Assembly: GCF_032444005.1 (NCBI RefSeq)
Contig: NC_091283.1
Location: 307,272,001-307,336,000 of the forward strand
Source: Ranitomeya imitator
Lineage: Eukaryota
Length of the DNA: 64,000 nt
Direction of reading: 5' to 3'
Shown here: positions 16,634 to 49,280 of the stretch, piece after piece
How the letters are laid out: each line of letters begins with the position of its first letter
Position numbering within the stretch: position 1 is the first letter of the stretch
Program-made: the position numbers and the translations under genes
Notes under the pieces: model-generated
What the model was told of the DNA's origin: nothing
What the model saw: the letters and a program-made list of their open reading frames with translations, nothing else
Database searches by the model: none

Positions 16634-18818
16634 CTAAGAATAAAACCAATTATTTTTCCACAAAATATCAAATTTAATATTTTTTGAACATTTCTACTTA
16701 AACGGTCATTAAAAATGGCAAGTTATGTAATATATTTGAATTATTCACCAACAAAATGACAGTTCACAGTCTAATAGAAAACATCATAGGATGAACCAGT
16801 GGAGCGTGGCGTTCAACAGTCAACAGTTTGTTCATCCTGCCTCCCAAATATGGAATAAAAAGCCACCAAACGATGTTATGTAGACAAAATAATACCAATG
16901 AAAAGTTCTACTCATCTTACAAAAAACAAGTCCCCTCTCAGGTCCATCATCTGTCAATGGAAAAACAGAGGTTTCTACATTATTAGTGGCTTGAAAAGCA
17001 ACATCGCTTCCATAAACCAATCTAGCAAAATCCACTCTTCAAAAGTTAAATCTCCCCCTCGCTTCCGAGCCTTGCAGTGTGCTCAAACCACATTTAGCAT
17101 CCATGTATTTGGCATTACTATAGCGAGAAGAACCCACTTAATTTATGGTGCGTGTGTCTTCTGGAGCACAATCTGGGCACTATGTGTTGGGTAATAAAAT
17201 GGCTTATTTTCCATTTTTACTCTCCGACATCCACTGCGCGCTAATTAACGGACAGTGGCTGTGGAGTCAAAATTGTCACTACTCCTAAAGATTAATTCAC
17301 AGAGGGTTATACTGTCCAAAATGGAGTCACTTTATGGGGATTTCTACTGCTCTGGTTTTCTGACATTTTGTCATATTAGGGCTTTTACAAATGCTGTGTC
17401 CCATCTTCTCTGGGATCTGCTCTTATGCCGTCTGCTTATCAAATAATAATTGTGATGTAATTTCCATGTTCAACCTCTTCAGCCAGATATCCTCATTAAT
17501 ATTAAATAAAGACACACACCAGCCTATGTAGGAGCATTAACATAATTAACCTACATATGCTGTAACAAAAAAGCAATTGTCAGAAATCTGCATGAAATGC
17601 AATATCTGTTTTATATTTCAAAATATTTTTTTAAAAATTGCCTGGGCTCCCGCATAATTTTCATAACCAGCAGAGGGAAAGCCGACAGCTGATGTAAATA
17701 TTCTGGGAAGGAGCCAATAGCCAAAGATTCGCAGGCTACGACTATAAATATCAGCTCACAGCTATTTGCTTAGCCTTTACTGGCTAGTTTACAAGGAAAC
17801 CCCAGAAAAAAAATTGACATGGGTTCCTCCTATAAGCTCGCACCAGCTAAGGCTTGACAGACAGCTGCGGGCTGTTATTAATAGCCTGGAAAGGGACCAT
17901 GGATATTGGCATCCCCCAGGTTAGAAACTTCAGCTCTCAGCCACCCGAGAAATGGCGCATCTTATAGATGTGCCAGTTCTGGCACTTAGCCTCGCTCTTC
18001 CCACTTGCCCTGTAGCGTTGGCAAGTGGGGTTCATATTTGTGGGGTTGATTTCGCCTTTGTATTATCAGGTGACATCAAGCCCACAGGTTAGTAATGAAG
18101 AGACTTCTATAAGACACCTATCCATTACTAGCCCTAATGATAATGTATAAAACACAGACACCCAGAATAAAGTCCTTTATTTGAAATAATCACAGACTCC
18201 TTTATTGAATCAAAGTGTACTATATTTACTGAATGCCTAATCTCCAACTCCCTTGTCTCCTGCAAACAATCAAAAAAATAATAAACCAACATATACTATT
18301 TTGTCCGCCGTAGTCCATTTAATACCAAGTGTCCCACGGCGATCTCACGTGTAGAACAGTCACATCAGGAGATGTGACTGCTATACCCGGCCTCCAGCGA
18401 TATGTTGACAGGAGGTAATTATTCCCGCAGTGTATCACTGCGCTGCTGTGAGAGTTCACAGGAGTTCATCAGCTGATCAGCTGCGATTCTCTCACTTAGG
18501 GCACTACTGCTGTGTGAGAACTTTCCCGCGCAGCGATGCCGTAAGTGAGAGCACCGGAGCTGATCAGCTAATCAACTCCAGTGAACTCTCACGGTGGCTC
18601 AGTGGTACACTGCGGGAGCGACTACCTCCTGTCAAAAGATGTAGCCAGATGGGCGTAGTAGTCCCACCAGACGATGCCAGGGTATACATGTCCGTCGCAT
18701 GAGAACACACACACAAACACACATATATTTTCCGCCCACACACAGAGACACACGCACGTATTCTCCGCCCACACACAGACGCATACATATTCTCCGCCTA
18801 CACTCTTCCTCCTTTTGA

Positions 18819-19035
18819 GGGTATGTGTCCACGTTCAGGATTGCATCAGGATTTGGTCAGGATTTTCCATCAGTTTTTGTAAGCCAAAACCAGGAGTGGA
18901 TGATAAATACAGAAGTTGTGCACATGTTTCTATTATACTATTCCGCTAATTGTTCCACTCCTGGTTTTGGCTTACAAATACTGATGAAAAATCCTGACCA
19001 AATCCTGATGCAATCCTGAACGTGGACACATACCC
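18819..19035. mobile_element. Harbinger-like palindromic MITE
   Basis: TIR GGGTATGTGTCCACGTTCAGGATTGCATCAGGATTTGGTCAGG with its exact complement; 3-bp TGA TSD at 18816-18818 and 19036-19038. Confidence 0.85.
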
Positions 19036-19440
19036 TGACAGTATTTCCCTTTGACAATTTGCAGCATTTTTGACAGCAAATCTGAAGCTAGTCCGTAAAC
19101 CTTTTTACACCTGTGTTTTTGCTGCAGATTTTACTGACTCAGTTGAAGTCAATGAGTCCAAAACGCAGCAGAAACGCAAAAAGGATTGACATGCTGCAGA
19201 AAATAAAACAATACAAATAAGGACAGAAATTTACTGATAATGTGCAGTACACTTCAGGATTGTCTTTGATTTCCCTTGTTTTAGTATTCCATTGCATTTT
19301 TGGAGCATTTACAGAAGTAAAAACAAAAATGCCACGAAAATGGATTGTGTGCATGTAGCCCAATAGTGTAGAGCAGACGTTTGATAAATCTAGATCTCAA
19401 GCATTTGCAAAAGGGAATGGAGACCTTTCTAACCTCTTAA

Positions 19441-20729: not shown

Positions 20730-22617
20730 CCGCATATACTCGAGTATAAGCCGACACGATAATAAGCCGACCCCCCTAATTTTGCCACAAAAAAACTGGG
20801 AAAACTTAATGACTCGAGTATAAGCCTAGGGTGGGAAATGCAGCAGCTACCGGTAAATGTCAAAAGTAAAAATAGATACCAATAAAAGTAAAATTAACTG
20901 AGACATCAGTAGGTTAAGTGTTTTTGAATATCCTTATTGAATCAGGAGCCCCATATAATGCTCCATAAAGTTTATGATGGCCCTTTAGATGCTCCATATT
21001 AAAATATGCCCCATATAATCCTGTATAAAGGTTAATAATGGACCCATAAGATGCTCCATAGACACATTTGCCCAATATAATGCTGCACAAACCTTGATTA
21101 TGGCCCCATAAGATGCTCCTTACAGACACTTGCCCCATATAGTGCTGAACAAACGTTGATTATGGCCCCATACAGACACTTGCCCCATATAGAGCTGCAC
21201 AAACGTTATGGCCCCATAAGATGCTCCATACAGACACTTGCCCCATTTGCTGTTGCTGCGAGAAAAAAAAAAATCACATACTCACCTCTCCATCGCTCAG
21301 GCCCCCGGCTGTTATGAACTGGTGGTTTAGGAGCAACATGGGACGAGCTCTGAAGGAGGTGGTACCTGTACTGACCGCAGTTCCTAAGCTCAACACAACA
21401 CTAGAAGTAGCCGTGGGATGTTCCTGTCACTCCCTAGACACCTCGTCACAGCCTGAGAACTAACTACCCCTAAAGATAGAAACAGGAAAGCTATCTTGCC
21501 TCAGAGAAAATCCCCAAAGAATAGATAGCCCCCCACAAATAATGACTGTGAGTGGAGAGGGAAAAGACATACGTAGAATGAAACCAGGATATAGCATAGG
21601 AGGCCAGTCTAGCTAGACAGATAGGACAGGACGGAATACTGTGCGGTCAGTATCAAAAACTACAAAAATCTCCACACCTGACTAAAGGTGTGGAGGGTAA
21701 ATCTGCTTCCCAGAGCTTCCAGCTTAACTGAAAAAATCCATACTGACAAGCTGGACAAAAACATAGAATGTACAGAACAATAAAGTCCACAACATGTGGA
21801 CAAAAAAAGAGCAAAGCAAGAAATTATCTTTGCTGAACTGGTCAGGATATCAGGGAAATCAAAGCAGAGATGTGAATCCAACCAGGAACCATTGACAAGT
21901 GGCACAAGCTGAAGGAAAGAGCCAGGCTAAATAGCCGAGCAGAATAGACAATCAGTGGAAGCAGCTGCTGACTGCTAAATCCAAGGAGCAGCCATACCAC
22001 TTAAAACCACAGGAGGGAGCCCAAGAGCAGAACTCACAAAAGTGCCACTTACAACCACCGGAGGGAGCCCAAGAGCGGAATTCACAACACCCGGCACTTT
22101 CAATATTCACCTGACTTCGCTCCGGCGCCACTCCTTCTTAAGCGTCTTCTGCACTGACGTTTAGGCAGAGGGCGCGCACTAACCACGTCATCGTGCCCTC
22201 TGTCCTGAGCGTCACTGCAGAAGATGCTGAAGACGGAGCGGCGCTGCGCTCCCCGTTATACTCACCTGCTCCTGGTGCTGTGAAGTTCCTGTTTCCCCGG
22301 TGCTGCAGCTTCTTCCTGTACTGAACGGTCACCGTTACCGCTCATTACAGTAATGAATATGCGGCTCCATCCCTATGGGAGGTAGAGCAAGCATATTCAT
22401 TACTGTAATGAGCGGTACCATGTGATCGCTAAGTACAGGAAGAAGCTGGGGTGCCGGGGAGCCAGGGACCGCGCCAGGAGCAGGTGAGTATAATTAGACG
22501 CCACCTCTCCCCCTCCCCTGACGACCCCTGGGTATGACTCGAGTATAAGCCGGAAGGGGGACTTTCAGCCCCCCAAAAATGGGCTGAAAATCTTGGCTTA
22601 TACTCTAGTATATACGG
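20730..22617. mobile_element. Non-autonomous Tc1/mariner (pogo/Tc2-like) element carrying a solo LTR
   Basis: TA TSD at 20728-20729 and 22618-22619; TIR CCGCATATACTCGAGTATAAGCC / GGCTTATACTCTAGTATATACGG; internal GCCCCATATA-type minisatellite at ~20950-21240. Confidence 0.85.
21310..22089 (-). mobile_element. Solo LTR related to the Gypsy chromovirus LTRs at 28450 and 32993
   Basis: TGTTATGAA...TTCACAACA termini and shared internal blocks (GCCCCCCACAAATAATGACTGTGAG; CCAGAGCTTCCAGC); CCCGGC duplicated on both sides. Confidence 0.9.
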
Positions 22618-27680: not shown

Positions 27681-29089
27681 GGAAGGGATCAGCTTATAGG
27701 TAGAGGATCATAAACAATCACCCAGTGAAGCTATCATCTTCATCATCATCATCATACCGGTTTTGGAGGTGGAGACGCTGTGTGGGGTCTGAGTAGATCT
27801 GCATCTCTACTCCTCGTTTTACTGCTCATGTGAGTGTCAGATCCTTCCATGGAACGACCACTCCTTTTTGCCGATGATTTTGAGCCATTAGCGCTGCTTT
27901 TGACAGCGCTATCTTGCTCCACCGCTGGTGGATGCTCGTTATGCAATGGGGACAGCATACTGATCGAATAGCTCTGTGCCCCGGCCTGCCATTTCAATTG
28001 CGTGGTCATCTGCATTGCGCCGCCCGCCGCGAACCGGAAGTGCTCCGACTACTTCCGGTTCAATGAAGCAGCACGGACTTTCCCGCACGACGGAGCCTCC
28101 ACCGCCTCCTAGCAGCGCACTCCACCGCTGGTAACTGGAAGATCGGCCCCACACACATGCCTCCTCCATAGGCCGGGCTTTGTCGCCCGGAACCTGCCGG
28201 ATGGTGACCAGACGAGGGGGGAGGCTGCATGCAGTGGCTCCCCTGCCGCTGCTACTGATGTCGCAGCCCCTGCTGTCATCGAGAGGACCACACAGGTGGG
28301 TGCACAGGCTCAGGTAATCTGGAGGTGCTCCAACCACCTCCATCTGTAGGAATCCAGGGATTTCTGATAGGAACAGGAAACCAACTGAGGAGGAGAAGGG
28401 GACCGCCATTTTTATCTCTGTAGGTTTCCTGTTCCTATGGGCGGGTCCCTGTTATGAAAGGTAATTCAGTACCACAATGGACATAGAGGTCAGCGCACAT
28501 ACAGTGACCTGGCAATAACCCAAAAAACAAGAACGAGCTCTGAGACGTGGGAACTCTGTTGACCGCAATCCCTAATCCTCTCAAACCACACTAAAGGCAG
28601 CCGTGGATTGCGCCTAACGCTGCCTATGCAACTCGGCACGGCCTGAGAAACTAGCTAGCCTGAAGATAGAAAATAAGCCTACCTTGCCAGAGAAATACCC
28701 CAAAGGAGAAGGCAGCCCCCACATATAATGACTGTGAGTTAAGATGAAAAGACAAACGTAGAGATGAAATAGATTTAGCAAAGTGAGGCCCAACTTTCTG
28801 AACAGAGCGAGGATAGGAAAGGTAACTTTGCGGTCAACACAAAACCCTACAAAAACCACGCAAAGGGGGCAAAAAGACCCTCCGTACCGAACTAACGGCA
28901 CGGAGGTACACCCTCTGCGTCCCAGAGCTTCCAGCAAGCAGAAAAAAACAAATTGACAAGCTGGACTGAAAAAAACAGCAAACAAATAGCAAAGAGGAAC
29001 TTAGCTATGCAGAGCAGCAGGCCACAGGAACGATCCAGGAGGAAACAGGTCCAATACTAGAACACTGACTGGAGGCCAGGATCAAAGCA

Positions 29090-32000
29090 CTAGGTGGAGT
29101 TAAATAGAGCAGCACCTAACGACTTCACCACATCACCTGAGGAAGGAAACTCAGAAGCCGCAGTACCACTTTCCTCCACCAACGGAAGCTCACAGAGAGA
29201 ACCAGCCGAAGTACCACTTGTGACCACAGGAGGGAGCTCTGCCACAGAATTCACAACAGTACCCCCTCCTTGAGGAGGGGTCACCGAACCCTCACCAGAG
29301 CTCCCAGGACGACCAGGATGAGCCATATGAAAGGCACGAACAAGATCGGGAGCATGGACATCAGAAGCAAAGACCCAGGAATTATCTTCCTGAGCATAAC
29401 CCTTCCACTTAACCAGATACTGGAGTTTCCGCCTTGAAACACGAGAATCCAAAATCTTCTCCACAATATACTCCAACTCCCCCTCCACCAAAACCGGGGC
29501 AGGAGGATCAACAGATGGAACCATAGGTGCCACGTATCTCCGCAACAATGACCTATGGAATACGTTATGTATGGAAAAAGAATCTGGAAGGGTCAGACGA
29601 AAAGACACAGGATTAAGAACCTCAGAAATCCTATACGGACCAATATAACGAGGTTTAAACTTAGGAGAGGAAACCTTCATAGGAATATGACGAGAAGACA
29701 ACCAAACCAAGTCCCCAACCCGAAGTCGGGGACCCACACAGCGTCTGCGATTAGCGAAACGTTGAGCCTTCTCCTGGGACAAAGTCAAATTGTCCACTAC
29801 ATGAGTCCAAATCTGCTGCAACCTGTCCACCACAGTATCCACACCAGGACAGTCCGAAGACTCAACCTGCCCTGAAGAGAAACGAGGATGGAACCCAGAG
29901 TTGCAGAAAAACGGTGAAACCAAGGTAGCCGAGCTGGCCCGATTATTAAGGGCGAACTCAGCCAAAGGCAAAAAGGACACCCAGTCATCCTGATCAGCAG
30001 AAAGAAAGCATCTCAGATATGTTTCCAAGGTCTGATTGGTTCGTTCGGTCTGGCCATTAGTCTGAGGATGGAAAGCCGAGGAAAAAGACAAGTCAATGCC
30101 CATCCTACCACAAAAGGCTCGCCAAAACATCGAAACAAACTGGGAACCTCTGTCAGAAACGATATTCTCTGGAATGCCATGTAAACGAACCACATGCTGG
30201 AAAAACAATGGCACCAAATCAGAGGAGGAAGGCAATTTAGACAAGGGTACCAAATGGACCATCTTAGAGAAGCGATCACAGACCACCCAAATGACTGACA
30301 TCTTTTGAGAGACGGGAAGATCTGAAATAAAATCCATAGAGATATGTGTCCAAGGCCTCTTCGGGACCGGCAAGGGCAAAAGCAACCCACTGGCACGAGA
30401 ACAGCAGGGCTTAGCCCGAGCACAAATCCCACAGGACTGCACAAAAGTACGCACATCCCGCGACAGAGATGGCCACCAAATGGATCTAGCCACTAACTCT
30501 CTGGTACCAAAGATTCCAGGATGACCAGCCAACACCGAACAATGAACCTCAGAGATAACTTTATTCGTCCACCTATCAGGGACAAACAGTTTCTCCGGTG
30601 GGCAACGATCAGGTTTATTAGCCTGAAATTTTTGCAGCACCCGCCGCAAATCAGGGGAGATGGCAGACACAATTACTCCCTCTTTGAGGATACCCGCCGG
30701 CTCAGATACACCCAGAGAGTCGGGCACAAAACTCCTAGACAGAGCATCCGCCTTCACATTTTTAGAGCCCGGAAGGTATGAAATCACAAAGTCAAAACGG
30801 GCAAAAAACAACGACCAACGAGCCTGTCTAGGATTCAACCGCTTGGCGGACTCGAGATAAGTCAAGTTCTTATGATCAGTCAAGACCACCACGCGATGCT
30901 TAGCTCCTTCAAGCCAATGACGCCACTCCTCGAATGCCCACTTCATGGCCAGCAACTCTCGATTGCCCACATCATAATTTCGCTCAGCAGGCTAAAACTT
31001 CCTGGAAAAGAAGGCGCATGGTTTCATCACCGAGCAATCAGAGCTTCTCTGCGACAAAACAGCCCCTGCTCCAATCTCAGAAGCATCAACCTCGACCTGG
31101 AACGGAAGCGAAACATCTGGCTGACACAACACAGGGGCAGAAGAAAAACGACGCTTCAACTCTTGAAAAGCTTCCACTGCAGCAGAAGACCAATTGACCA
31201 AATCAGCACCTTTCTTGGTCAAATCGGTCAATGGTTTAGCAATACTAGAAAAATTGCAGATGAAGCGATGATAAAAATTAGCAAAGCCCAGGAACTTTTG
31301 CAGACTTTTCAGAGATGTCGGCTGAGTCCAATTATGGATGGCTTGGACCTTAACAGGGTCCATCTCGATAGTAGAAGGGGAAAAGATGAACCCCAAAAAT
31401 GAAACCTTCTGAACACCAAAGAGACACTTTGATCCCTTCACAAACAAAGAATTAGCACGCAGGACCTGAAACACCGTTCTGACCTGCTTCACATGAGACT
31501 CCCAATCATCCGAGAAGATCAAAATGTCATCTAAGTACACAATCAGGAATTTATCCAGGTACTCTCGGAAGATGTCATGCATAAAGGACTGAAACACTGA
31601 TGGAGCATTGGCAAGTCCGAATGGCATTACTAGATACTCAAAATGGCCCTCGGGCGTATTAAATGCAGTTTTCCACTCATCGCCTCGCTTAATACGCACA
31701 AGATTATACGCACCACGAAGATCTATCTTGGTGAACCAACTAGCCCCCTTAATCCGAGCAAACAAATCAGATAACAATGGCAAGGGGTACTGAAATTTAA
31801 CCGTGATCTTATTTAGAAGGTGGTAATCTATACAAGGTCTCAGTGAACCATCCTTCTTGGCTACAAAAAAGAACCCTGCTCCTAATGGCGACGATGACGG
31901 GCGAATATGCCCCTTCTCCAAAGACTCCTTCACATAACTCCGCATAGCGGCGTGCTCAGGCACAGATAAATTAAACAGTCGACCTTTTGGGAATTTACTA

Positions 32001-32404
32001 CCAGGAATCAAATCGATAGCACAATCACAGTCCCTATGCGGAGGTAGGGTATCGGACTTGGGCTCATCAAATAAATCCCGGTAATCAGACAAGAACTCAG
32101 GAACCTCAGAAGGGGTGGATGACGAAATAGTCAGAAATGGGACATCACCATGTACCCCCTGACAACCCCAGCTGGACACAGACATGGATTTCCAATCTAA
32201 TACTGGATTATGGACTTGTAGCCATGGCAACCCCAACACGACCACATCATGCAGATTATGACACACCAGAAAGCGAATAACCTCCTGATGTGCAGGAGCC
32301 ATGCACATGGTCAGCTGGGTCCAGTACTGAGGCTTATTCTTGGCCAAAGGCATAGCATCAATTCCTCTCACCTTTTCTGAAAATAGCTGCGAGCGCACCT
32401 TCAT
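29090..32404 (-). pseudogene. Gypsy pol: partial protease, RT, RNase H, integrase and chromodomain; one in-frame TAG at 30992
   Basis: YLDD RT; RKF*PAERNYDVGNRELLA; integrase HHCC and D,D(35)E (SMDF, SDRG, TERTN); GPY motif; chromodomain YIVEKILDSR...YLVKWKGY...NSW. Confidence 0.95.
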
Positions 32405-32855
32405 TCCACTGAGTGAGTACGGACCACTTTCTAAATTTCTGACAATATACCTCTATTTCATCCTGACCCTGACACAGAGCCAGCAAATTCTTCTCTGCCT
32501 GATCCACAGAATTAGGCTCATCGTACAGCAATCCAAGCGCCAGGAAAAATGCATCGATATTACTTAATGCAGGATCTCCTGACGCAAGAGAAAATGCCCA
32601 GTCCTGAGGGTCGCCACGCAAAAAAGAAATAACGATCCTAACTTGTTGAACTGGGTCACCAGAGGAGCGAGGTTTCAAAGCCAGAAATAGTTTACAATTA
32701 TTTTTGAAACTCAGAAATTTAGTTCTATCTCCAAAAAACAAATCAGGAATAGGAATTCTCAGTTCTAACATAGAATTCTGAACCACAAAGTCTTGAATAC
32801 TTTGTACTCTTGCCGTGAGCTGATCCACACATGAAGACAGACCTTTAATGTCCAT
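32358..32855 (-). pseudogene. Gypsy gag N-terminal half (truncated by an internal deletion)
   Basis: MDIKGL...PDLFFGDRTKFLSFKNNCKLF...ISFLRGDPQDWA...LCQG, a retrotransposon capsid-like sequence; it jumps into mid-protease near 32400. Confidence 0.85.
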
Positions 32856-34421
32856 TGCTACACCTGTGTCCTGAACCACCCAAATGTCTAGGGGAAAAAA
32901 AAGGCAAAACACAGTGCAGAGAAAAAAAAAATGGTCTCAGAACTTCTTTTTTCCCTCTATTGAGAATCATTAGTACTTTTGGCCTCCAGTACTGTTATGA
33001 AAGGTAATTCAGTACCACAATGGACATAGAGGTCAGCGCACATACAGTGACCTGGCAATAACCCAAAAAACAAGAACGAGCTCTGAGACGTGGGAACTCT
33101 GTTGACCGCAATCCCTAATCCTCTCAAACCACACTAAAGGCAGCCGTGGATTGCGCCTAACGCTCCCTATGCAACTCGGCACGGCCTGAGAAACTAGCTA
33201 GCCTGAAGATAGAAAATAAGCCTACCTTGCCAGAGAAATACCCCAAAGGAGAAGGCAGCCCCCACATATAATGACTGTGAGTTAAGATGAAAAGACAAAC
33301 GTAGAGATGAAATAGATTTAGCAAAGTGAGGCCCAACTTTCTGAACAGAGCGAGGATAGGAAAGGTAACTTTGCGGTCAACACAAAACCCTACAAAAACC
33401 ACGCAAAGGGGGCAAAAAGACCCTCCGTACCGAACTAACGGCACGGAGGTACACCCTCTGCGTCCCAGAGCTTCCAGCAAGCAGAAAAAAACAAATTGAC
33501 AAGCTGGACAGAAAAAAAACAGCAAACAAATAGCAAAGAGGAACTTAGCTATGCAGAGCAGCAGGCCACAGGAACGATCCAGGAGGAAACAGGTCCAATA
33601 CTAGAACATTGACTGGAGGCCAGGATCAAAGCACTAGGTGGAGTTAAATAGAGCAGCACCTAACGACTTCACCACATCACCTGAGGAAGGAAACTCAGAA
33701 GCCGCAGTACCACTTTCCTCCACCAACGGAAGCTCACAGAGAGAACCAGCCGAAGTACCACTTGTGACCACAGGAGGGAGCTCTGCCACAGAATTCACAA
33801 CAGGTCCCTCTCTCAAGTGAGTGCGGTCGTGGCGAGGGGTAAAATTGAAAATTCAGTATAAAGGGAAACTGTTACAGTACAGAAATTCACACTTGGCCCT
33901 CACTGCACATTTAATGTTGTCGATCATAAAAGCAAAGTTTGTCCAGAAAGACTGGACCTGGACTTGTAGGGACCATATGAGCACATTCAGCAGCACAGAA
34001 GGGGGAGAATGTAAATTCATCCAATAAGATAACAGGGTTATAGGAAGCCAACAGCATCATTACCCTCCGATTTCTCTTACAGGCCCATCATAGTATTTTT
34101 CTTCAAGTGGCTTTCTAACTTGTCAGCACATTCTACGTACACTGTCATTTGACTTTGCAGTTTACAGATCTGGGCAGGTTACGACCAGCATCTCCTGATT
34201 TCAGGGTGTAGGTTGGCCCTCCAGGCTATATATTCTATAGAAAGGGCTTTTAAAGTCCAAAGTCATTTGAACAGTTTTGGGTGGAGGAGAATGTTGTGGT
34301 CTAGAGGCGAAATGGTGATCACACGATTGTGATACAGCAAGACTACACCACCGATAAAGCAGCCACAGACAGTGGCTGAGAAGAATCTGTGACTTCTCTG
34401 CATTTAGTGGTCACTACTCAC

Positions 34422-34610: not shown

Positions 34611-37600
34611 AAACCGGATTACTTACCGGTAATTGTATTTTAAGGAGTCCACGATAGCACCCACTGAGAGAGGGGATCCACCCCCAGGAACAGGAAGCTT
34701 ACAGATAAAAAGGGGTGGTCCCCCTCCTCAGTTGGATTACAGAGTACAGGAAAAACCGCAAAGAAAACATTAGAACATCTTCATAAAACCTACTCAATAT
34801 GTATAAACATATGCCACCATCACCCGGAGTGAATTACATACACATCTCTATTATGTGCTACTAAGGGAGGGAAGTGGGTTCTTTCATGGACTCCATAAAA
34901 TACAATTACGGTAAGTAATCCGTTTTTTTATTCTCGCCATGACAGCACCCACTGAGAGATTTCAGGGAACCATCATCTGGGAGGGACCACTGTATTGAGG
35001 ACAGGTCTCCTGAAAACCAAGTCAGAAGATGATGACAAATTGAGTCCATAGTGGCTGTAAAAGGTAGATGGTGAAGAACATGTTGCAGCATTACATATCC
35101 GATCAATCAATATGTCCGCCTTCTTAGCCCAGGAGAATGCCATAGACCGTGCCAAATGTGCCCTTATTCCATCCGGAGGACCTTCACTCTTTGCTGAGTA
35201 AGCCAGACAGATTGTATATGTGATCCAACGTGATAAAGTGCTCCTTGTGACTCCAAACCCCTTCCTGTGGCTCTGAAAAGACACAAACTGAGCCCTACTC
35301 TGCCTTCAGGGATATTTAATATGTACTTTAATGATATGTACGTTAATGTGACAGACAGACGACGGACCTATCAGGGCATCAAAGACCAGTTTCAGGTCCT
35401 AGGGAGGCAAGCGAGCAATGTGTACAGAGTCGCTACGCTCACACGCTGAAATAAACCATGCAACCCATCTAACTCCCGCAATATTACGACTATATAGGGC
35501 TCCCAAAGCTGATATCTGAACCTTTAATGTGTTAACTGAAAAACCCAGCTCCCAACCCTCGAAAATTGCAGCAACTGGAACCTCACTAGAGAAAGGCCCA
35601 GTATGAAAATTAAGGAACTTCCTCCACACTCTACTGTATATCTTGGTCGTGGATTCTTTCCTACTCTGCAGACTGGTACTAATCAGGTTGTCAGAAAACC
35701 CCCTTAATCTCAACAACTGCCTGAAGTTCCACGCCTTCAAGTGGAGACCTCTCACCCAAGGATGATAGGATGGACCCCAAGAGAGCAGGCCCGGATCTGA
35801 TGGGAAGATCCAGGGGTCGGATATGGACATGGCCCTGAGCCATGACAACCAAGGTCTCTTGTGCCAGAAAGGAGCGAAGAGAATTATCCTTGCTCTCTCG
35901 TCCCTGATCTTCCTGATGACTTGTGCAAGCACCATCATTGGAGGAAACGCATAGGCCAGACTGAAGCGACAAGGGAACTGGAGGGAGTCGACTAACTCTG
36001 GCTGATATGCCCTGTTTAGGGAAGCAAATCTTTGGACCTTTCTGTTGTCCCTGGTAGCAAACAAGTCTATTTCCGGAAGACCCCACAAGTCCACTAAATT
36101 ACTGAATACTTGGTGACTGAGACCCCATTCTCTCTGATATAACGTATGGCGACTGAGGAAGCCGCTTTAAGATATTCCACTCCCCTGATGTGAAGGGCTG
36201 AGAGGGACAAGAGATGGGCTTCGGCCAGTTCGAGAATATCCACCACAGTAGACATCAGCACTTTTGATCAAGTTCCGCCTTGCCAATTTACGTATGCAAC
36301 TGACATGGTATTGTCCGACAAAACTCTCACATGCGTCCCCCACAGCTGTGGGAGAAAGTGATGTAGAGCATGACTGACTGCCTTTAATTCCTTTAGATTT
36401 GAGGAGGCATCAGCCTCCTCTATGGACCTCTGCCCCTGGGCCAGGTTATCGTCCATATGAGCTCCCCATCCATCAGGGCTAGCATCCGTAGTAACTATCC
36501 TGGACGGTTTCACTACCCATGGAATCCCCTTCCCTCCTGGTCTCCCGGGACCTCCACCACGACATGCTTAGATAACAGACATAAAACCTCCAACTCAAGA
36601 GCCTCCTGTTGTGCCGGGGATCTAAGAGAGGTGATGACAAAGGAATCTGAGGGAATTCGACAAAACTCTAGTTTCAACCCCGATGTTACTAAGCCCAGGG
36701 TCCAGGGATTAGAAGTGATCTCCCGCCATCTGTGTCAAAATTTTTTTAACCTGCCGCCCACAGGAGGGTCAGGGTCAATGGAATTTATTACTCTTCCTGG
36801 AAGAGGATCCGCTAAAATGGGCACTTTTTTGTTTGGTCTCCTTTGTCTCCCAGCGATCTCGGTTTTCATAATTCCACCTTCTACCGAATGGTCACTTTCT
36901 GAAGGCCCTCCTGTAGGATGGAACAGACTGGTTAGGGAACCCCTTCTTTCTCTCTCCCGCCTTGGTGAGGATCTAATCGAGCACGCTGCCAAACAGGAAC
37001 TCACCCTGGCATGGAATTGTGCACAATTTAGACTTTGCGCATCCCCCTTCCAGCCCTTCAGCCATAGGACACGACGAACAGAATTCACAAGACCAGCTGA
37101 CCTTGTTGCCAGGCGTAGGGAGTCCACAGAAGCATCAGCTAGATATGCTGTAGTTCCCCTGATCAATGGACTAGAGGACATCAGCCTCTCTCTAGACAAT
37201 CCTTTCTTGATCTGTTCCTCCAGCTAGTCCACCCAAACAAGCATTGACCTTCCTGTACATGTGCTGGATATAGCCGGTCTAAAGGCTCTGGTGCAGGACT
37301 CCCATGATCTTTTAAGTAATGTCTCTGCTTTGCAGTCTAGAGCAGTGTTTCTCAACTCCAGTCCTCAAGACCCACCAACAGGTCATGTTTTCAGGATTTA
37401 CTTAGTATTGCACAGGTGATAATTTCATTACCTGCACAAGCATTAATTCCATCACCTGGACAATACTAAGGAAATTCTGAAAACATGACCTGTTGGTGGG
37501 TCTTGAGGATTGGAGTTGAGAAACACTGGTCTAGAGGGTCAAGTAGGACCACAGAATCTTCTACAGGCAGGACAAAATGTCTAGAAGTCGAGGCCACTGC

Positions 37601-39785: not shown

Positions 39786-39863
39786 CTCTCCAGTAAGCCG
39801 GAAGAGGATCTCTAGGGTGAGGTGTAATATCCTCTCTGCCATCTTGTCTCTGTCCATATCCAT
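39786..39863 (-). CDS. Zinc-finger gene coding exon 1 (MDMDRDKMAERILHLTLEILFRLTGE); exon begins at 39932
   Basis: ATG at 39863 with an in-frame upstream TGA; |gtgag donor. The six exons sum to 2772 nt (923 aa plus stop). Confidence 0.85.
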
Positions 39864-40910
39864 CTTTGATTGGTTAATAAGGAAAATTCCCTCAATAGTA
39901 GATCTTCACAGAGGATCGGATATTGTAAATACCTGAATGAGAAGAAGATGAGCCGATGTAACATCATAAAATTCCTGTAGATAATAAGGGGAAACATATA
40001 AGAAGATAGAACTTGTAGATGTTGTACTCTCTAGTCTTGTATGGACTGGAACGTAAGTTGAATTACTGACTAAGACATCTCCTCCATGCTCCCAATCACT
40101 GCCTATATTACTCACTGCCTTGGTGACTGATTGGCTGTAAGAATCATAACTTCGTTAGGACTGAGCAGAAAATACAGAGATTGGCGGGAACCCAAGCAGC
40201 AATGGTATATTTGCTATTTTACAGTGTTTAGTTTTCTTCTTTCCATCTACTAATAAAACCTATATATTTAGGCCACAGACAACAAGCAGTTTCTCCCTCG
40301 GAGTCGGCAGCTGAATACGTTTCTCATAGACTCATCTTCCATAACGCTAATTCTCGTCTCATTTACCGACCCTGGAATCGGCATTAGTAATACTGCAGGA
40401 GATATTCATTACACGTGACAGGAGAAATAACTACTTCATGATGAGGACGACATCTTCATCTTCTACTACGGCTCTAGAAACAGATTTGTCCACAGTCCGT
40501 CACTGACTTCATCACCACCGGCCTCTATATGAAGGTTTCCCGACAATACTGTGTGGGGCCCCGTACTATGAGAGTATTACAGGTTTCCTTGGTTCCCGAC
40601 TTTCATAGTTGGGTCGTTTGTATCTATCAGCGGAAAAGGAACAAAACCATTGTGATTCTTATAAGGAGACAACACAAACCCCCTAAATATAACATTTTAT
40701 AACAACCCCACAATCTGTGACTCTTCAGGGTAAATCGCTCTCTCCCCATTGGATTAGAGCTGATACTATGAAGCTAAAGGGACTAAACAGACTTTCTGTC
40801 ACCTCCATAAAGGGGCACTTTGCCGTGTTTGTCAGAACTGTCCGAGGATTAATAGAGGTGATAGCTTCCCCCCAATTAGAAGGGACACCTGTGGATATTG
40901 GGGTCTTTAC

Positions 40911-41110
40911 CTGCTAAAGTCCTGGTGTGGATCCTCCACCTGCAGAGCCGCACTCCACCTATATGGCAGTTCTGTGCGCACAGGACCTGTGATGAGGTCA
41001 CAGGAGGGGAGGAGTCAGGGGTCACATGATCAGGGGCCTCAGTGTATGCAGGACTCTGCTGTGCTGGTTGCCATGGTGCTGGATGAGGGGAAGTTTATAT
41101 GTGGGGTCAG
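40911..41110 (-). promoter_or_regulatory. Putative non-coding first exon and promoter of the zinc-finger gene
   Basis: CAG|GTAAAG donor at 40911/40910; upstream GTTGCCATGG (RFX X-box-like) and TCACATGA motifs. The transcription start site is inferred, not shown. Confidence 0.45.
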
Positions 41111-41134
41111 GAGGGGTTTACAGTGTGGATGTAG

Positions 41135-41420
41135 CAGAGCCGTGTGTGTACAAGGTGTACGGAGCGGAGCCATGTGTGTACGGGGTGTACGTAGCGGAGC
41201 CGTGTGTGTACGAGGTGTACGGAGTAGAGCCGTGTGTGTACGGGGTGTATGGAGCAGAGCCGTGTGTGTACAAGGTGTACGGAGCGGAGCCATGTGTGTA
41301 CGGGGTGTACGTAGCGGAGCCGTGTGTGTACGAGGTGTACGGAGTAGAGCCGTGTGTGTACGGGGTGTACGTAGCGGAGCCATGTGTGTACGGGGTGTAT
41401 GGAGCAGAGCCGTGTGTGTT
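41135..41420. repeat. 30-bp CpG-rich minisatellite (left part)
   Basis: GTGTGTGTACGAGGTGTACGGAGCAGAGCC variants; continues after the provirus. Confidence 0.95.
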
Positions 41421-42001
41421 TGTTAGAAAAAGTAACCGTTCCTTATTTTTTCAAGTAATACGGTGAGAATAGGAAAGATAAGCAAAATTGAATTGTGTGG
41501 ATAAAACAAGTCTTATTTAATGTCCATTCAAAAAGTGATTACAAAAATGAAGAAAAAGTAAGTTTATCAGTTCATAGCACACAAATCAAGTATTAGATTA
41601 TAAGAGAAAAATTAAGCATAGGTCTTACGTATGTCTTTGAGGCATGATGTGGTCCATGTGGAGAGTTCTCAAGGAATGAGAAAGTCTGCCCCCTACTGGT
41701 GCTGGGTCTACCCTTATATACTCTTTTGACCCATAGACTTCCATTGGTTACTATCTTTTCCTACCTCCTAGCCACATAAGGTGATCTACCTGGTGCTATA
41801 TCCATAGCTCATACCATATTAGCAAAACCTAGTAATTTGCAAACATACATTGGCTCTTTACATTACTTCATGGTACATCCTAAATATAATTTGCTTTGGT
41901 TACGGGTAACCTAAGCAATCCACATATAGATACAGTTTGACAACTCCACTCATTAGTTTTGACATACAAACAACAGATGCGAAAGCCAAGGTCTTCAGGA
42001 T

Positions 42002-42328
42002 CAAGATAAGTGAAAGCAGTCACAGGGGAGCGCAGAGGAATAGACCCAGGGAAGGGGAGATGAAAGGGAGTTGTCGAGCACCACTGCAGCTCCAGCTGAA
42101 TACCTCCAAGGGAGGATAAGAATGCGTGTCAAACAGAAATCAGTCCCAGGAGCGCTGAAGGAAACTCAGACAACATATGTCGTTTGCCACAACGCGTTTC
42201 AACGGTAAACACCGTCTTCTTCAGGTGGGAGAAGAAGACGGTGTTTACCATTGAAACGCGTTGTGGCAAACGACATATGTTGTCTGAGTTTCCTTCAGCG
42301 CTCCTAGGACTGATTTCTGTTTGACACG
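42002..42328 (-). mobile_element. Short Penelope-like fold-back insertion
   Basis: 15-bp TSD CAAGGTCTTCAGGAT at 41987-42001 and 42329-42343; ~100-bp inverted arms at 42123-42222 and 42231-42330; absent from the 5' LTR. Confidence 0.8.
42187..42228 (-). ncRNA. Minimal type I hammerhead ribozyme
   Basis: CCAC-CTGAAGA-A-GACGGT GTTT ACCGTT-GAAAC-GC-GTT-GTGG: 4-bp stem I (CCAC/GTGG), stem II hairpin, AACGCGTT palindromic stem III, GUU cleavage triplet. Confidence 0.7.
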
Positions 42329-42592
42329 CAAGGTCTTCAGGATAGCTGACACACACACTAGAGTTCAGAGCTACTGTTCAATAATTGATCGTTGCATTAT
42401 TATTTTATTATTTTTATTATATTATTGTTTTACATTCCCCCCTGATTATGATTTGAGAAATATCATAATCAATCCTAAACTCTTTCTCTCACCATTCGTA
42501 TCACATTCATTCTTTATTCTGAAAACCTTGTATCAACATCTGTTTTGAATGTCATCTAAATTTTGGAGACTAAAATCAAATTAAATCAAAGA

Positions 42593-43305
42593 TTATATTT
42601 TTCTTTTTAGCATTTCTCTCAAAATATCATCCTCCTTTTTCATTTCTATCTTTATCTTTTTGTAAATATTTTTAATTTTACACATAATAACTATTTGATA
42701 TATGATACACAGCAAAACTATAATAAATATAATAACAATCGGATTAGATAATACATTTCCTGCTGCCATTTTCGCTGAAGACTGTGACCAACTATTTACT
42801 GATTTTCCTAAATTTCTCCACCAAGATGAGCCTAACATACTCGTTCATTCATGTTCAATATCATTTAGATTCCCTTGCTCATGTCTGAATACAATTTCAG
42901 CTTCTTTTAGCTGTTTTGTTAACAAATTTAACAAACCCTTGTCTTTCTTTATCTCATTTGTCCACATATTCCAAGGAAAATTATTAATTTGGGACAAATT
43001 GAACTGTATTGGAAGGATTTTTAGGTTTCTTGAACCTATTGACGTAATATTAATACTTCCTTCCTTCTTTGAGAGAGTTTTCACATTTCCCTCAATACAA
43101 TATAAACCTATTGTCAGACTTTCAGCATGTACACAAGATGAAAAGAATGCAGAAACAGCTTCTTTTTCTGACATAACTTGGAAACAAATCTTATTAGCGC
43201 TTACTGGTGTCACCAAGTCATGGATCGTGTGTACATTCTCAACTCTGGCATGACATGAGGTATGATTATGGAAACATGAATGGTATATGACTTTGTCCTG
43301 TCCAG
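42593..43305 (-). pseudogene. env C-terminal remnant (Cys-rich ectodomain piece, heptad-like segment, TM helix, basic tail) with one in-frame TGA at 42845
   Basis: ORFs 42845-43309 and 42593-42838 are in the same frame (DIEHE*TSMLGSSWW); hydrophobic PIVIIFIIVLLCIIYQIVIMC; lies directly upstream of the PPT. Confidence 0.7.
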
Positions 43306-46300
43306 GCAATTCTGGATTTTATTGTTCTATTCATCCTTTCCACAATACCAGCAGACTGTGGATGGTAGGGTACATGGAACTGTTGTTGTACCCCTAGAAT
43401 AGTACAAACGGCTTGCATGATTTTTCCTGTAAAGTGACTTCCTCTATCGGAGGAGATCATTCTTGGGATCCCCCAAGTACAAAAGACATGGTTAACTAAT
43501 GCTCTAGCTGTAGACAAAGCATCATCTTTTCTGACAGGTAAAATTTCAACCCATTTAGAAAAAAACATCTACTACCACCAATGCATACCTGAGACCATTT
43601 TTACCTGATGGTAGCGGACCAATGTAGTCAATTTGTAGTGTAGACCATGGACCATCTGCAGGTGCGGTTCGGAGTAGTGGCGGTTTCTGTCCTTTTGGTC
43701 TTGGATTAATTTGGGCACAAATGAGACATGATTGGACAACACCTTGTACTGTCTCTTCCATCTTTTCCCAGTAAAATTTTTCTCTGAGAATGTCTAACAA
43801 TTTTTGCTGGCCCAAATGACCCAAGCTTTCATGATTATATTTTGTGAACTCGGCCTGTAGATGTTTTGGTACAACAGGACGCAACTCCCCATTTAAGTCA
43901 TGACACAAAACACCGTTTTCACAAACAAAGGGAGGTTTTGGATCAACCCGGGAAGCAACAAGAGATTTGTCTTTTTCTTGTTCTTCCGCAAAAGAAGGGA
44001 TATGCGTGTCTGTTCTTTGAACTGCTCTAACCTCGAGAAGTTCGGATTGAAACACTTCTTCTCCTGTCAGGGCTGCCTCTTTGGCTAACCTATCTGCGGT
44101 GGCATTTCCAACGGATAATTCGTCATCAGATTTTTTATGGGCAGGAACTTTAACAATAGCAAAACCATTAGGGGTTTTTGATGCTATCACAAAGATTGTT
44201 TTCAGTGTGTCACTATGTACAAGAGTCTTATTGGAAGAATCTACATAGCCTCTTTTCTCCCAAACTGGCAGATAATCTGTCAGTGACCTAACAACATAGG
44301 AGCTATCACTGTGGATTACAATGGGACACTGATCATCAGCTTCATTCAGCTGTAGCACCATTTTTACTGCTTCTAGCTCTGCCCTTTGAGCTGAAAAATG
44401 ACTTGGTAATTTGTGTTTTACAACCTGTTCTCTTTTGGGATAAAAAATGACATATCCTGAATAGTAGTGTCCATCTGCATAGAATCTGGAACCATCCACA
44501 AAAATTGGTACATCTGTTGCTTCTGCCTCTGAAAAGCGATGGACTAGGATCCTGAAAAGACTGTAAACAATCATGAGTTTGTCCTTCATATTGCATCAAC
44601 TGAGGAAGAACATATTTGGCCTTATAATCTACCTCAATTTGTTTGGGAGACAATGACAATAACCAATGAGCAAATCTCTGATGTGACACACCTGGGATAT
44701 TATTCTCAAAGAAAAGTTTTAGTGTAGAATGGGGAGTTTGCAAAGTGATTTTGTTGAACCCAACAATGTGTTCAGTTGCTTTGACTGCAAAGTACACACC
44801 AACCAGGTGTCTTGCACATGTCTCAAAACCTCTTTCAACAGGTGAGAGAAGCTTAGAAAAGTAGCCCAAAATTCTCCACTCTTCTCCCTGCAACTGTAGC
44901 AGCACAGCAGATACAGAAGTCTCTGATGTGTGCAATTGCAAAGCAAATGGCGCGGAAGGATCTACTGTGGACAAAGCAGGTGCAGTTTGTAAATTCATTT
45001 TCAATTGTTCAAATGAGGTTTGTTGTTCATCACCCCAGGGACCAAAGTAATCACTATTTTCACCTTTTAGAAGATCGTACAAAGGCCTGGCCTTGTCTGC
45101 AAAATTTTCAATGAAGTCCCTTGAAAAGTTTATAAGACCCAAAAAATGTCTCAATGCCTTGTGTGATGTTGGAACTGGTAGAGAAGCAATTGCCTCTATT
45201 CTTTCCTGCAGTGGCTGTCTTTTTCCTGGACTCAACAACACTCCTAAAAATCTGACCTCAGTCTGCATCAATTTGACCTTTTTAGTGTTTAATTTCAACC
45301 CTGCATCATGCAGCAGCTCAAACAATTCTTTCAGAAGTGAAACATGTGACTCTTTGTCCTCAGTAGACAATAGGATATCATCCACATACTGCAAAATACA
45401 ATCAGGCCTCGAAAATTTAGATAATACCTTTGCCAATGCCTGATGGAACACACTGGGTGACAAATGCGCCCCTTGAGGTAGCCTGCAGAACAAATATTGC
45501 TCATCCAAGAAGGTAAATGCAAACTTATACTGACAACTCTTTTCAAGAGGTATGCTGAAAAAACCATTACTGATGTCTAGTACAGAGAAATATTTTGCTT
45601 TTGCATTCAGCCTTGCCATCATATCATGAGTATCTGCAACAATGGGTGCTACATTGGGAGTATGTTTATTAAACATCCGCAAATCCAATATCATTCGATA
45701 AGAACCATCAGATTTTAAGACACACCACAAAGGATTGTTACTGACAGAATTAGCCTTTCGGATGACACCTTGTTTTAACAATTCCTGTATGATCTCTGAC
45801 ATAGACTCAATTGATTCTGGAGGCAATTTATACTGACGCTGAGGGGGTGGATCCTTTCCCTCGACATTTACAACAACATTTTTCATCAAACCCACTTCAT
45901 TCCTGAACTGAGCCCAAAGAGAAGGCAAAAGCTGTACAATTTCTGTCAATACCTCATCACCACCAGTTTCAGGCCACAGGTGTTCTGCTGACACAACATC
46001 ATTTAAGCAAATACTTCCAACATGGCTATAATCAATAGGATCAATAACTACAAGTTTACAACCATTAGAATCTTTCCAGATCACTTGATTCCCTAGATCA
46101 ACAACCCATCCAAATTTCTGCATAAAATCTGTGCCAAGTATATTTTCAGAATCACGACAATACCAAATGTCAATTGTTGTTTTGAAAGAACTAGGTATTT
46201 CCAATGTCACATCCGTAACTAAGGTTGCTTTAGTTCCACCTTTTTCACTAAAACCAACAATTGTACAAACTGGTGAATCTGGTTGTAACTTCAAATCAAG

Positions 46301-46450
46301 ATTTGTTACGCTTAATTGGGCTCCTGTATCAATCAAAAATACAACAGTCTGTCCTGCTAGATTTACCTTGATAAAAGGTCTCCCACAATTATCTAATGTC
46401 ACTCGAGCCACAAATTCCAATGGATGAGGTGTAGGAATTGTCTGTGATTG
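43305..46450 (-). pseudogene. Retroviral-type pro-pol: protease, RT, degenerate RNase H (tether), active RNase H and integrase; two frameshifts, integrase C-terminus deleted
   Basis: FLIDTGAQ and ILGTDF; LPQG..SP and YVDD; tether lacking catalytic acids (QLHTS, RHL, TPHS); FVDGS, AELEA, HSDS, NATAD; HHCC, IDYIGP, SSDRG, IVERMN. Frameshifts near 44550 and at the A-run near 43560. Confidence 0.92.
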
Positions 46451-48010
46451 TCAGAAAGATGGAGGAGACGGGAGAAGTCCAATGTCCTTTTTAAAAGCAC
46501 TTGGAGTTCTATTTCTGGCCTCAGTCTCCTTCACGGTCATCTCTCTGATCTGTCTGATTAATGGTGCATACGGTGACTGCGTTTGTCTGTTGTCAGTGTG
46601 AGTGGGTGCATTTGATTGTAATGGAGGTGCAGAAGGCCTAGTGGATAGTTTTGGCATGAGTCCGTTTTCCCTTCCAAGTTTTTCTGTCCCTTGTGTACCT
46701 GTCTCTGATTCTGCTCTCAGGAATTTTCTGCACTGCCACTTTAAGTGTCCAGGTATACCACAGAAATAACAATGGATATTGTTCCTTTGTGTAGTATTTT
46801 TACCTCTATGATCTACATAATCTCTGCTCTGGAAGGTTACTGTAGGTCTAGGTTTCAACTGGCTATCTTCTTTCTCATGAACTACCGCTATTTTTGCCTT
46901 CACCTGATTTTGTTTCATGGATCTCCTTACTCTGTCGATAAAAACTGTTGCTTTTTGTAATGATGGCTGAGCACTAGCCATTTGCTCTGAGGCAGGATCC
47001 AAATATTTGAACTTTTTTACAAAAAATCTGATCATGGATGTTGGCTCCTGATTAGGCCCAATTTCCATCACCATTCTATAGGCCTGCTCAAATTTTACCA
47101 AAAATGCAAATGGATCCTCATTAATATTGGTACAAAGTGATTCCAATATTTCAGCTGTCGGGGTAGATTCTCCCGTAAAGAATAAATTTAATTGCCTAAG
47201 TCTGTCTTCTCTTGTACTATGAATCTGCTCATGCTCCTAATTCAATCTGGGTGTGGTCTGTAATCTTTTTCCCATATGTGAGGGTAACCATACTTTGAAT
47301 ATTTTATTTTTTTGTTCATCATTAAGATTGTATTTGTCTGTATTTGATTAAAAAATGTCTGCATTATAAAAGGCATCCATCTTGTCATTGAAGTTTGGAA
47401 TGTCTTTTACAATTTTCATTAACTGATCGTGTATTTTCAGATTAATGCGTGCTGCTCTGTCATGGAATTTTTTCCGTTGTAATTCTTCTGCCTGAATATC
47501 TACTGACTCATCCAAATCTTGTGTATCAGGGACAAATGATACAGCGGCATTGTCTTCATGTTGGCCTGATCGTGTAAGAACAGAAGCCTTCTTTATATCT
47601 TGTCTCAATTTGGACAATAATTCTGTTCGAACATCAATCTGATCTTCCAATTGTTCAATATGTTCTGACAATATTAAACAATTTGGACAATCAAAGTAAT
47701 CCTTGTCAGATTCGTGTGTGTCACCTTGTGTATCAGTATGACCAGTGTCTTGTGTGACAGTACATATCTCATGTGTCTGTGTGTCAGTTTTCTCAAAAAC
47801 TAAATTATTGTATACTCGGACCATATGCATGACATTTTGAAGCTTCCTTTGTAACTTTTTTACTGAAAAAAACTTTTTATCAATTTTAAGATTCTCTGTT
47901 TCACATTGACTATACAAACTAGACCATAATTGTGAATCTGTATAGCTATGAACAAACAAACTGTATATTACTTTTCTTAGAATATTCATGAATAAAATCC
48001 ATTTTCTCAC
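46451..48010 (-). pseudogene. gag (frameshifted between 47348 and 47146) with a CCHC zinc knuckle
   Basis: CYFCGIPGHLKWQC; position between the 5' leader and pol; ends with TGA in frame with pol. Confidence 0.85.
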
Positions 48011-48286
48011 CTAAGGATTTTCTTTTTCCTCCTGGAATGATCCGACCGTCAATGGATGGTCCTCTGTGTCTTTTCACTGATCTTCCGTCTGGATGAGTCG
48101 TGCAGCTTTCTGAAGACACGAATGCTCACTCCTCTGTAGGCCCTTCTGACTCTTGTGACGTGATATAGTGGAATTTCTGCGCCTTGAACAACAGGTGTTT
48201 AGCAAACCTCCCTTCCCCCCTGTACAAGGGGTGGAATTCCACACAAAAGCACAAAAAAATCAGATCTGGCTTAAGGCTTGCCAAAA

Positions 48287-48955
48287 TGTTAGAAAAAGTA
48301 ACCGTTCCTTATTTTTTCAAGTAATACGGTGAGAGTAGGAAAGATAAGCAAAATTGAATTGTGTGGATAAAACAAGTCTTATTTAATGTCCATTCAAAAA
48401 GTGATTACAAAAATGAAGAAAAAGTAAGTTTATCAGTTCATAGCACACAAATCAAGTATTAGATTATAAGAGAAAAATTAAGCATAGGTCTTACGTATGT
48501 CTTTGAGGCATGATGTGGTCCATGTGGAGAGTTCTCAAGGAATGAGAAAGTCTGCCCCCTACTGGTGCTGGGTCTACCCTTATATACTCTTTTGACCCAT
48601 AGACTTCCATTGGTTACTATCTTTTCCTACCTCCTAGCCACATAAGGTGATCTACCTGGTACTATATCCATAGCTTATACCATATTAGCAAAACCTAGTA
48701 ATTTGCAAACATACATTGGCTCTTTACATTACTTCATGGTACATCCTAAATATAATTTGCTTTGGTTACGGGTAACCTAAGCAATCCACATATAGATACA
48801 GTTTGACAACCCCACTCATTAGTTTTGACATACAAACAACAGATGCGAAAGCCAAGGTCTTCAGGATAGCTGACACACACACTAGAGTTCAGAGCTACTG
48901 TTCAATAATTGATCGTTGCATTATTTTATTATTTTTATTATATTATTATTTTACA
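48287..48955 (-). repeat. 5' LTR (669 bp)
   Basis: TGTTAGAAAAAG...ATTTTACA; followed on the minus strand by TTT-TGGCAAGCC at the expected PBS position. Confidence 0.95.
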
Positions 48956-49280
48956 GTGTTCAAGGTGTACGGAGTGGAGCCGTGTGTGTACGAGGTGTAT
49001 AGAGTGGAGCCGTGTGTACAATGTGTACGGAGCGGAGCCGTGTGTGTACAAGGTGTACGGAGCGGCGCCTTGTGTGTATGAGGTGTACGAAGCAGAGCCG
49101 TGTGTGTACGAGGTGTACGGAGCAGAGCCGTGTGTACGAGGTGGATGGAGCAGAGCAATGTGTGTACGAGGTGGACGGAGTGGAGCCGCATGTGTACGAG
49201 GTGTATGGATTGGAGCCATGTGTGTACGAGGTGGATGGACCAGAGCATTTTGTGTACGAGGTGTAAGGAGCGGAGCCGTG
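48956..49280. repeat. 30-bp minisatellite (right part, more diverged)
   Basis: Same GTGTGTACGAGGTGTACGGAGC unit as 41135-41420. Confidence 0.9.

Follow-up and report, generated by a model that had tools for sequence, protein, structure and literature searches.

A head-to-head pair of Penelope-like leader copies in the 3′ LTR of a Ranitomeya imitator provirus, probably formed by twin priming

Why does one LTR of an endogenous retrovirus carry a short, almost perfectly self-complementary insert with a hammerhead ribozyme motif, and can that ribozyme act where it stands? The question arises from a stretch of 64,000 nucleotides of the Ranitomeya imitator genome (the window, to which all plain coordinates refer), for which an earlier reading of the letters, here called the original prediction, had proposed consequences for the provirus, which lies beside a zinc-finger promoter. 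We followed this insert from its position in the provirus to the family of elements to which it belongs, and from there to a proposal for how such inserts are made.

The host provirus lies on the minus strand. Its two LTRs, at 41421..42434 (669 bp plus the insert, with CCAAT at 41747, TATA at 41720 and ATTAAA at 41521) and at 48287..48955 (the empty site), are 99.3% alike over 581 bp, differing by five substitutions and one 3-bp indel, and a host duplication of 5 bp, GTGTT, is present on both sides. The pol open reading frames (ORFs) are on the minus strand, and the LTR at 41421-42434 is therefore the 3′ LTR; the insert, about 100 nt within it and upstream of CCAAT, TATA and ATTAAA, falls in U3. 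The interior (42435..48286, minus strand) contains a split gag followed by protease, reverse transcriptase (RT), two RNase H domains and an integrase N-terminus with a frame break. Both the gag and the pol frames are broken and, compared with a copy of the same family, a deletion of 2,448 bp at 43305/43309 has taken away the core of the integrase together with most of the large ORF that follows. The LTRs, the host duplication, the PR-RT-RH-IN order and a retroviral RT identify the element as an endogenous retrovirus; the RT is nearer to RT/RNase H p80 and Pr125Pol chains (E ~1e-56), which we take to be MLV-type and foamy, than to Ty3 (E 4e-44). In the same-family provirus, the large post-pol ORF (L145:1363-3552, minus strand) gives weak immunoglobulin-domain matches below Pfam cut-offs. 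As the insert occurs in the 3′ LTR only, it presumably arrived at the DNA level after reverse transcription of this provirus.

The insert occupies 42002-42328 (327 bp) between two copies of a 15-bp target-site duplication (TSD), CAAGGTCTTCAGGAT, at 41987..42001 and 42329..42343. These coordinates and the empty 5′ LTR agree with what had been claimed, an insert of this size with its duplication in U3 of the 3′ LTR alone. Inverted arms of 100 nt each, at 42123-42222 and 42231-42330, are 98% complementary and separated by an 8-nt gap; the second begins at GAAGAAGA, with the CT absent, and thus starts inside the ribozyme core, likewise as described. The predicted fold of the insert reaches -230 kcal/mol (z = -24), equalled by 0 of 100 shuffles. 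Matches to miRNA families in an Rfam scan of the insert all fell below gathering scores and reflect its perfect hairpin. With leader positions counted along the minus strand from q1 = 42230, arm B (42002..42231, minus strand) comprises q0-q229 of the leader of a Penelope-like element (PLE) and ends at the second of two family 3′ ends, site B, and arm A (42231..42330, plus strand) runs inverted from q9 to about q106 and ends at the first family 3′ end, site A. A single G at the joint is common to both arms.

A search of the genome with the insert returned 988 candidates; the 40 that were scored were 97-100% identical, and 26 of these 40 had an adjacent inverted arm. Exact matches in the genome to a 24-mer immediately 3′ of the ribozyme cut site number 244 (control, 0). 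The PLE origin of the insert is borne out by longer copies: upstream, they continue into an ORF in which RT motifs, a CX4CxxC linker and a GIY-YIG-like motif can be recognized. By eye, locus L118 has an RT and then a C-terminal GIY-YIG, at FIDD and VVYLLECGCSLQYVGRT, which we take to be the RT and GIY-YIG motifs; the linker between RT and endonuclease (EN) reads CKAPRCLCC in L118 and CKTPRCLCC in L010, and fits CX2-5CxxC. Pfam returned only RVT_1, at E 0.001 and under the cut-off, and no GIY-YIG; Pfam and NCBIfam gave no name for the GIY-YIG domain or for a separate upstream ORF, ORF1. The CX2-5CxxC linker is defined for Neptune, and given for Nematis too, in the accessible text of PMC8557442, and, judged by its motifs, the order of RT, linker and GIY-YIG-like domain is the Neptune/Nematis architecture of that paper. 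A pLTR with a minimal hammerhead (min-HHR), tandem or inverted insertions and a one-sided tail are all present in the set formed by the insert family and a sister family.

ORF1 was found in three copies of the insert family, 93-100% identical and joined to the leader in 0 of 3, so that no copy linking q229 to ORF1 was found among these three. The autonomous partner that the original prediction expected for such a family was not found as an intact copy in the genome, although the family itself was. The sister family, whose hammerhead has 80 exact matches in the genome, provides a full-length partial tandem (L191/L192; G000:C6:240624000-240641900) with a unit of 5,257 bp: a leader with the hammerhead, a spacer of about 1.35 kb, ORF1 (about 440 aa, 62% identical to ORF1 of the insert family) and RT-EN in another frame. 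In the sister family the hammerhead region is thus the 5′ leader of a Neptune-type PLE transcript, and we infer the same for the insert. Two other classes were considered and rejected. A non-LTR retrozyme finds no short head-to-tail array among the 74 loci described below, and a MITE or foldback DNA transposon would not have outer ends that are not mutual inverted repeats, varying joints, TSDs of 13-19 bp and longer copies reaching an RT ORF.

The window holds further elements of related appearance. A second, unrelated head-to-head PLE-like pair lies at 2623-2841 (minus strand) and 4890-5105 (plus strand), 96% alike, with a hammerhead variant UUGAGAA...GAAACGUC (U3-A8 type) below CCAAT and TATA boxes, and a further min-HHR-like motif is present at 2584 (minus strand). 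Palindromic repeats with 79-95% self-complementarity at 1330-1765, 12141-12473, 13496-13831, 18405-18635, 18818-19036, 22256-22493 and 37325-37546 are probably non-autonomous DNA transposons, and a gypsy element with a chromodomain, its LTRs 99.1% alike, occupies 28449-33812 (minus strand).

The hammerhead of the insert (42187..42228, minus strand) reads, from 42228 to 42187 on what is also the provirus strand, CCAC-CTGAAGA-A-stem II-GAAAC-GC-GTT-GTGG, with a predicted cut at GUU, after 42191. It is a minimal type I hammerhead with a 4-bp stem I, CUGAAGA, a stem II carrying G10.1-U11.1 and a palindromic ACGCGU stem III, so that CUGANGA, GAAA, NUH, stems I and II and the palindromic stem III are all in place. 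Its identity was set by the min-HHR pattern in the accessible text of PMC4209133 and not by Rfam, which gave 0 hammerhead matches at gathering score and no hammerhead family among 17 weak matches. The motif had been called a complete minimal hammerhead oriented with the provirus; core and orientation hold, but 'complete' is too strong, as stem III has 2 bp and a 2-nt loop (the dimer type) and the pair at 10.1-11.1 is G-U, the conserved G-C being absent. G10.1-U11.1 occurs in 75 of 84 family arms, with G-C in the sister family, and the family with G-U has spread regardless. Two sense copies are predicted to co-fold into the dimer form through the 6-bp ACGCGU stem. Proviral RNA would contain one sense copy only, and that copy is paired in the hairpin.

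The original prediction saw in this motif a kill-switch or a conformational switch, self-cleaving upstream of R and poly(A) in full-length proviral RNA or toggling with the hairpin. In keeping with such a role, the motif is on the sense strand and upstream of ATTAAA, and among 40 scored of 287 candidates the LTR-insert junction was seen at this locus only, with no daughter provirus found. The predicted energetics argue the other way. Transcription in the provirus sense makes the antisense arm before the ribozyme, and a fold forced to have stems I and II and an open core is worse by 49 kcal/mol at q46, by 55 at q50 and by 61 from there on; without the second arm the same forced fold costs 5.7 kcal/mol. 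The ribozyme fold thus loses 49-61 kcal/mol at every transcript length tested, nascent RNA included, which speaks against a switch between hairpin and ribozyme. Single min-HHRs gave no cleavage in vitro according to the accessible text of PMC4209133, and in that of bioRxiv 10.64898/2026.07.22.740005 eight of nine Xenopus dimer elements did not cleave; the G10.1-U11.1 pair of most family arms adds to these objections. Moreover, a provirus that lacks its integrase core and has broken frames explains the missing daughters by itself, and a unique junction is what a dead provirus would be expected to show. Seven loci with an identical TSD were checked as a possible fold-back carried by an LTR element, but their shared flank is a minisatellite-rich repeat in which no LTR-element ORF was seen, and they therefore provide no test of a kill-switch. 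We consider either kind of ribozyme action at this locus highly improbable; the prediction is that the hairpin keeps the hammerhead locked.

A second proposed consequence concerned the hairpin as double-stranded RNA (dsRNA), a substrate for Dicer or ADAR and a silencing trigger on this provirus; a wider form of the idea would have the neighbouring zinc-finger gene silenced. The zinc-finger gene, beside whose promoter the provirus had been placed, is real: its 5′ end (39789..41115, minus strand) comprises a coding exon at 39863-39789 and a conserved upstream segment at 40900-41115, the latter a putative promoter and first exon. The provirus split a 30-bp minisatellite (41056-41420 and 48956-49280) about 400 bp upstream of this putative promoter. 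Being close to it and in the same orientation, the 3′ LTR could act as an alternative promoter. Both the putative zinc-finger promoter and the TATA of the 3′ LTR are downstream of the insert, so only RNA from the 5′ LTR or from read-through would carry the hairpin, and the insert, upstream of the probable gene start, would lie outside the zinc-finger RNA.

At the level of the family, sequencing runs do contain an editing-type signal. In one contig of run X6, compared with a natural copy of the family, 18 of the 23 T in q39-100 are changed to C, against 0 of 8 before and 0 of 46 after this interval (0 of 54 outside in all); two contigs of run X5, from another study, share seven of these T>C sites, and X1 and X2 show none. 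Among 187 genomic arms there are at most 4 T>C changes, each site being changed in 0-2 of about 170. Such clustering is what A-to-I hyper-editing of the antisense arm would produce, here in low-depth runs that are only guessed to be RNA, none of the runs matching the family being listed as RNA on record. An editing signal is to be expected, since Penelope ranks with the most heavily edited repeats of X. tropicalis (accessible text of PMC10636886) and, in Drosophila, siRNAs arise from its inverted repeats (likewise PMC3681739). Against an effect here, the X6 contig is flanked by sequence from two separate loci, its second arm (51 nt) is without edits, and none of the loose ends shown carries the flank of this LTR (three more ends fall outside this listing). 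The hairpin could well be an ADAR substrate, as had been suggested, but the signal belongs to the family and was not seen for this locus, and silencing of the provirus or of the zinc-finger gene by this route appears unlikely. Taken alone, the locus is unremarkable: a dead provirus with a fragment of a PLE in it.

How the insert was built is better read from the family as a whole. The first 100 of the 244 24-mer matches resolved into 74 loci on C1-C3, all of which were examined; 12 were merged for shared flanks, leaving 62, although the merged pairs L041/L079 and L115/L096 differ in structure and may be independent. Among the matches listed, 44 of the 62 independent loci are two-armed and head-to-head. 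When outer ends at q97-115 are scored as A and those at q224-238 as B, the two-armed loci comprise 2 AA, 33 AB and 0 BB, together with seven of B plus a shortened arm and two others; independent choice of sites predicts about 10:17:8 (chi-square p = 1e-7). Loss of the longer BB palindromes, from the genome or in assembly, could bias the counts, but would leave the shortage of AA unexplained. The 18 single-arm loci end at A in 10 cases, at B in 7 and elsewhere in 1; for five long ones, a partner arm may lie outside the flank examined. In the sister family, for which 24 loci were examined, two-arm insertions are AB in 8 of 8.

TSDs were compared in 45 two-arm loci, 32 from the 62-locus set and 13 from earlier searches: 37 have a TSD of 13-19 bp, seven have none of at least 11 bp, and one 40-bp call is spurious. 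TSD and element end overlap by 2.2 nt on average at B and by 2.9 nt at A, against a rough, unsimulated chance value of 0.7-0.9; site B of the present locus has no microhomology. Single-arm loci with a TSD call (L038, L045, L063, L065, L067, L070, L083, L104 and L052) have duplications of 8-12 bp in eight of nine cases (median 11), compared with 13-19 bp for two-arm loci. Insertions of different build share their exact target base within a repeated sequence at L171/L172 and again at L096/L115, which may point to a preferred target site. Separately, one fold-back has been amplified at least seven times inside minisatellite-rich host repeats (L039, L069, L074, L081, L092, L093 and L106), and one single-arm insertion three times (L024, L025 and L063).

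One A end and one B end could also result from a single priming event at B, provided that the cDNA folds back near its end and is DNA-copied to q105 before an endonuclease resolves the intermediate; the overall shape would be the same. The arms themselves make this snap-back route doubtful. In 17 of 33 AB loci the 5′ end of arm A lies more than 4 nt beyond that of arm B, so that arm A often contains sequence missing from arm B (for example, in L026, L086 and L098), and the arms of L037 and L172 do not overlap at all; arm A is therefore not a snap-back copy of B. Site A also occurs alone, with its own TSD, microhomology is found at both ends, and the extra G described below is possible on either arm. 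Separate priming at A and at B is the reading that we prefer.

The opposite ends of the arms define a boundary in the leader. Of 106 arms, 32 begin at q-7 to q-1, none at q-43 to q-8 and 36 at q0 to q12. The 5′ ends of family arms scatter from -7 to +44, and the junction inside the ribozyme core is hence not special; the idea that the inversion point informs on how short PLE inserts form proved useful nonetheless, through the A+B pairing and this boundary. Starts lie upstream of the ribozyme cut site in 100 of the 106 arms. A start exactly at the cut site (q41) is seen in 1 of 106 (L088), with one more in a merged locus (L079), and from these some templates may have been cleaved. In longer copies an ATTGG box is present and TTTAAAT precedes the 5′ boundary by 30 nt. 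A G precedes the A-run in 12 of 23 arms, at a position where the element itself has T (p = 0.005); about five of the 12 possibly derive from the target or the opposite arm, and about seven are explained by neither. All sister-family insertions that extend to the 5′ boundary have a G in front of it (7 of 7), with TATATA at -28. Reverse transcriptases can copy the cap, and we infer that the boundary is a capped Pol II start and the extra G a copied cap.

These arm and boundary data can be combined with in vitro facts reported for a Poseidon PLE in the accessible text of PMC11167929 to give a twin-priming model. There, both strands are nicked and extended, and the protein, a predicted dimer, begins cDNA synthesis at two internal positions, which delimit the tail, on uncleaved and unprocessed RNA. 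The same source reports no strand preference for either start site in vitro, which counts against a model of fixed pairing. Starting from the observed family identity, two fixed outer ends, A+B pairing, 5′ boundary, TSDs and provirus deletion, the steps would be as follows. Pol II would initiate at T|AAAC, which is 3 nt ahead of q1 and 30 nt downstream of the TATA-like box. The RT-endonuclease of the element would cut both target strands, 13-19 bp apart, and of the two 3′-OH ends one would prime at about q229 and one at about q105, with microhomologies of 0-9 nt. Both cDNAs would then pass through the uncut ribozyme to the cap, which would often be copied as an extra G, and the two cDNA ends would be joined head-to-head with a few bases lost. 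Read-through from host or provirus would produce a duplex of about 100 bp, likely ADAR-edited and without ribozyme action. We put the probability at roughly 75% that the insert is a promoterless head-to-head leader pair of this kind, twin-primed on a capped, uncleaved RNA in the 3′ LTR of an integrated provirus and with its hammerhead locked. For Neptune PLEs in general we lean, with somewhat less assurance, towards obligatory asymmetric twin priming, in which a single RNP would use each of the two fixed internal sites exactly once, on opposite strands of a staggered cut of about 15 bp, and the template would be a capped RNA with an uncut hammerhead.

In LINE-1 twin priming, both target strands prime on the RNA and yield a 5′ inversion, with a variable second site and no duplication; the insert family differs in that both sites are fixed and the overlap is duplicated. 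A close likeness is to Neptune EN+ PLEs which, in the accessible text of PMC8557442 and PMC3846280, share an RT with a C-terminal GIY-YIG and Cys linker, a pLTR with a min-HHR and a TATA, an inverted 5′-truncated neighbour copy, a tail at one end and a TSD. Inverted pLTRs, one-sided tails, TSDs and pLTR promoters are thus already described. The insert family departs from these elements in its tail of about 124 nt (30-40 nt described), its TSDs of 13-19 bp (8-10 bp in Adineta), its separate upstream ORF1 and its main product, a fold-back of about 330 bp without an ORF. Poseidon_Ac of Anolis resembles it in having two internal RT starts bounding the tail, in nicking and extending both strands, and in an unprocessed RNA template for which hammerhead cleavage is dispensable; its start sites are inside the ORF, whereas those of the insert family are in a non-coding leader, and inverted insertions go untreated in the accessible text of PMC11167929, where the word 'inverted' occurs once, for an inverted dT. 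Schistosoma PLEs, as presented in the accessible part of PMC4209133, likewise have two min-HHRs on opposite strands, there 100-700 bp apart, and a dimer-type core with an unpaired base between positions 9 and 10.1. Such pairs are therefore already on record; those of the insert family are dissected at base level and carry G-U at 10.1-11.1. Non-LTR retrozymes (bioRxiv 10.64898/2026.07.22.740005, accessible text) are also short, non-coding, hammerhead-bearing and PLE-derived, but form head-to-tail tandem arrays, unlike the head-to-head insert family, which has no dimer ribozyme in cis. Searches of mainly open-access literature turned up neither the A+B rule nor the cap-G boundary nor a twin-priming model of PLE integration, and the accessible text of PMC8557442 calls the origin of PLE tandem and inverted structures undefined.

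Two young families here give sharp rules: the A+B pairing, the cap-G boundary a short way upstream of the ribozyme, and passage of 100 of 106 arms through the cut site. These rules fit the one available in vitro PLE system, as far as the accessible text of PMC11167929 describes it. Head-to-head fold-backs also offer a structural reason for the heavy A-to-I editing of frog Penelope repeats noted in the accessible text of PMC10636886. If obligatory asymmetric twin priming is true, it alone would explain the inverted ends of PLEs, their one-sided tail and the mass of short fold-backs, and these short fold-backs would seed the genome with ADAR substrates.
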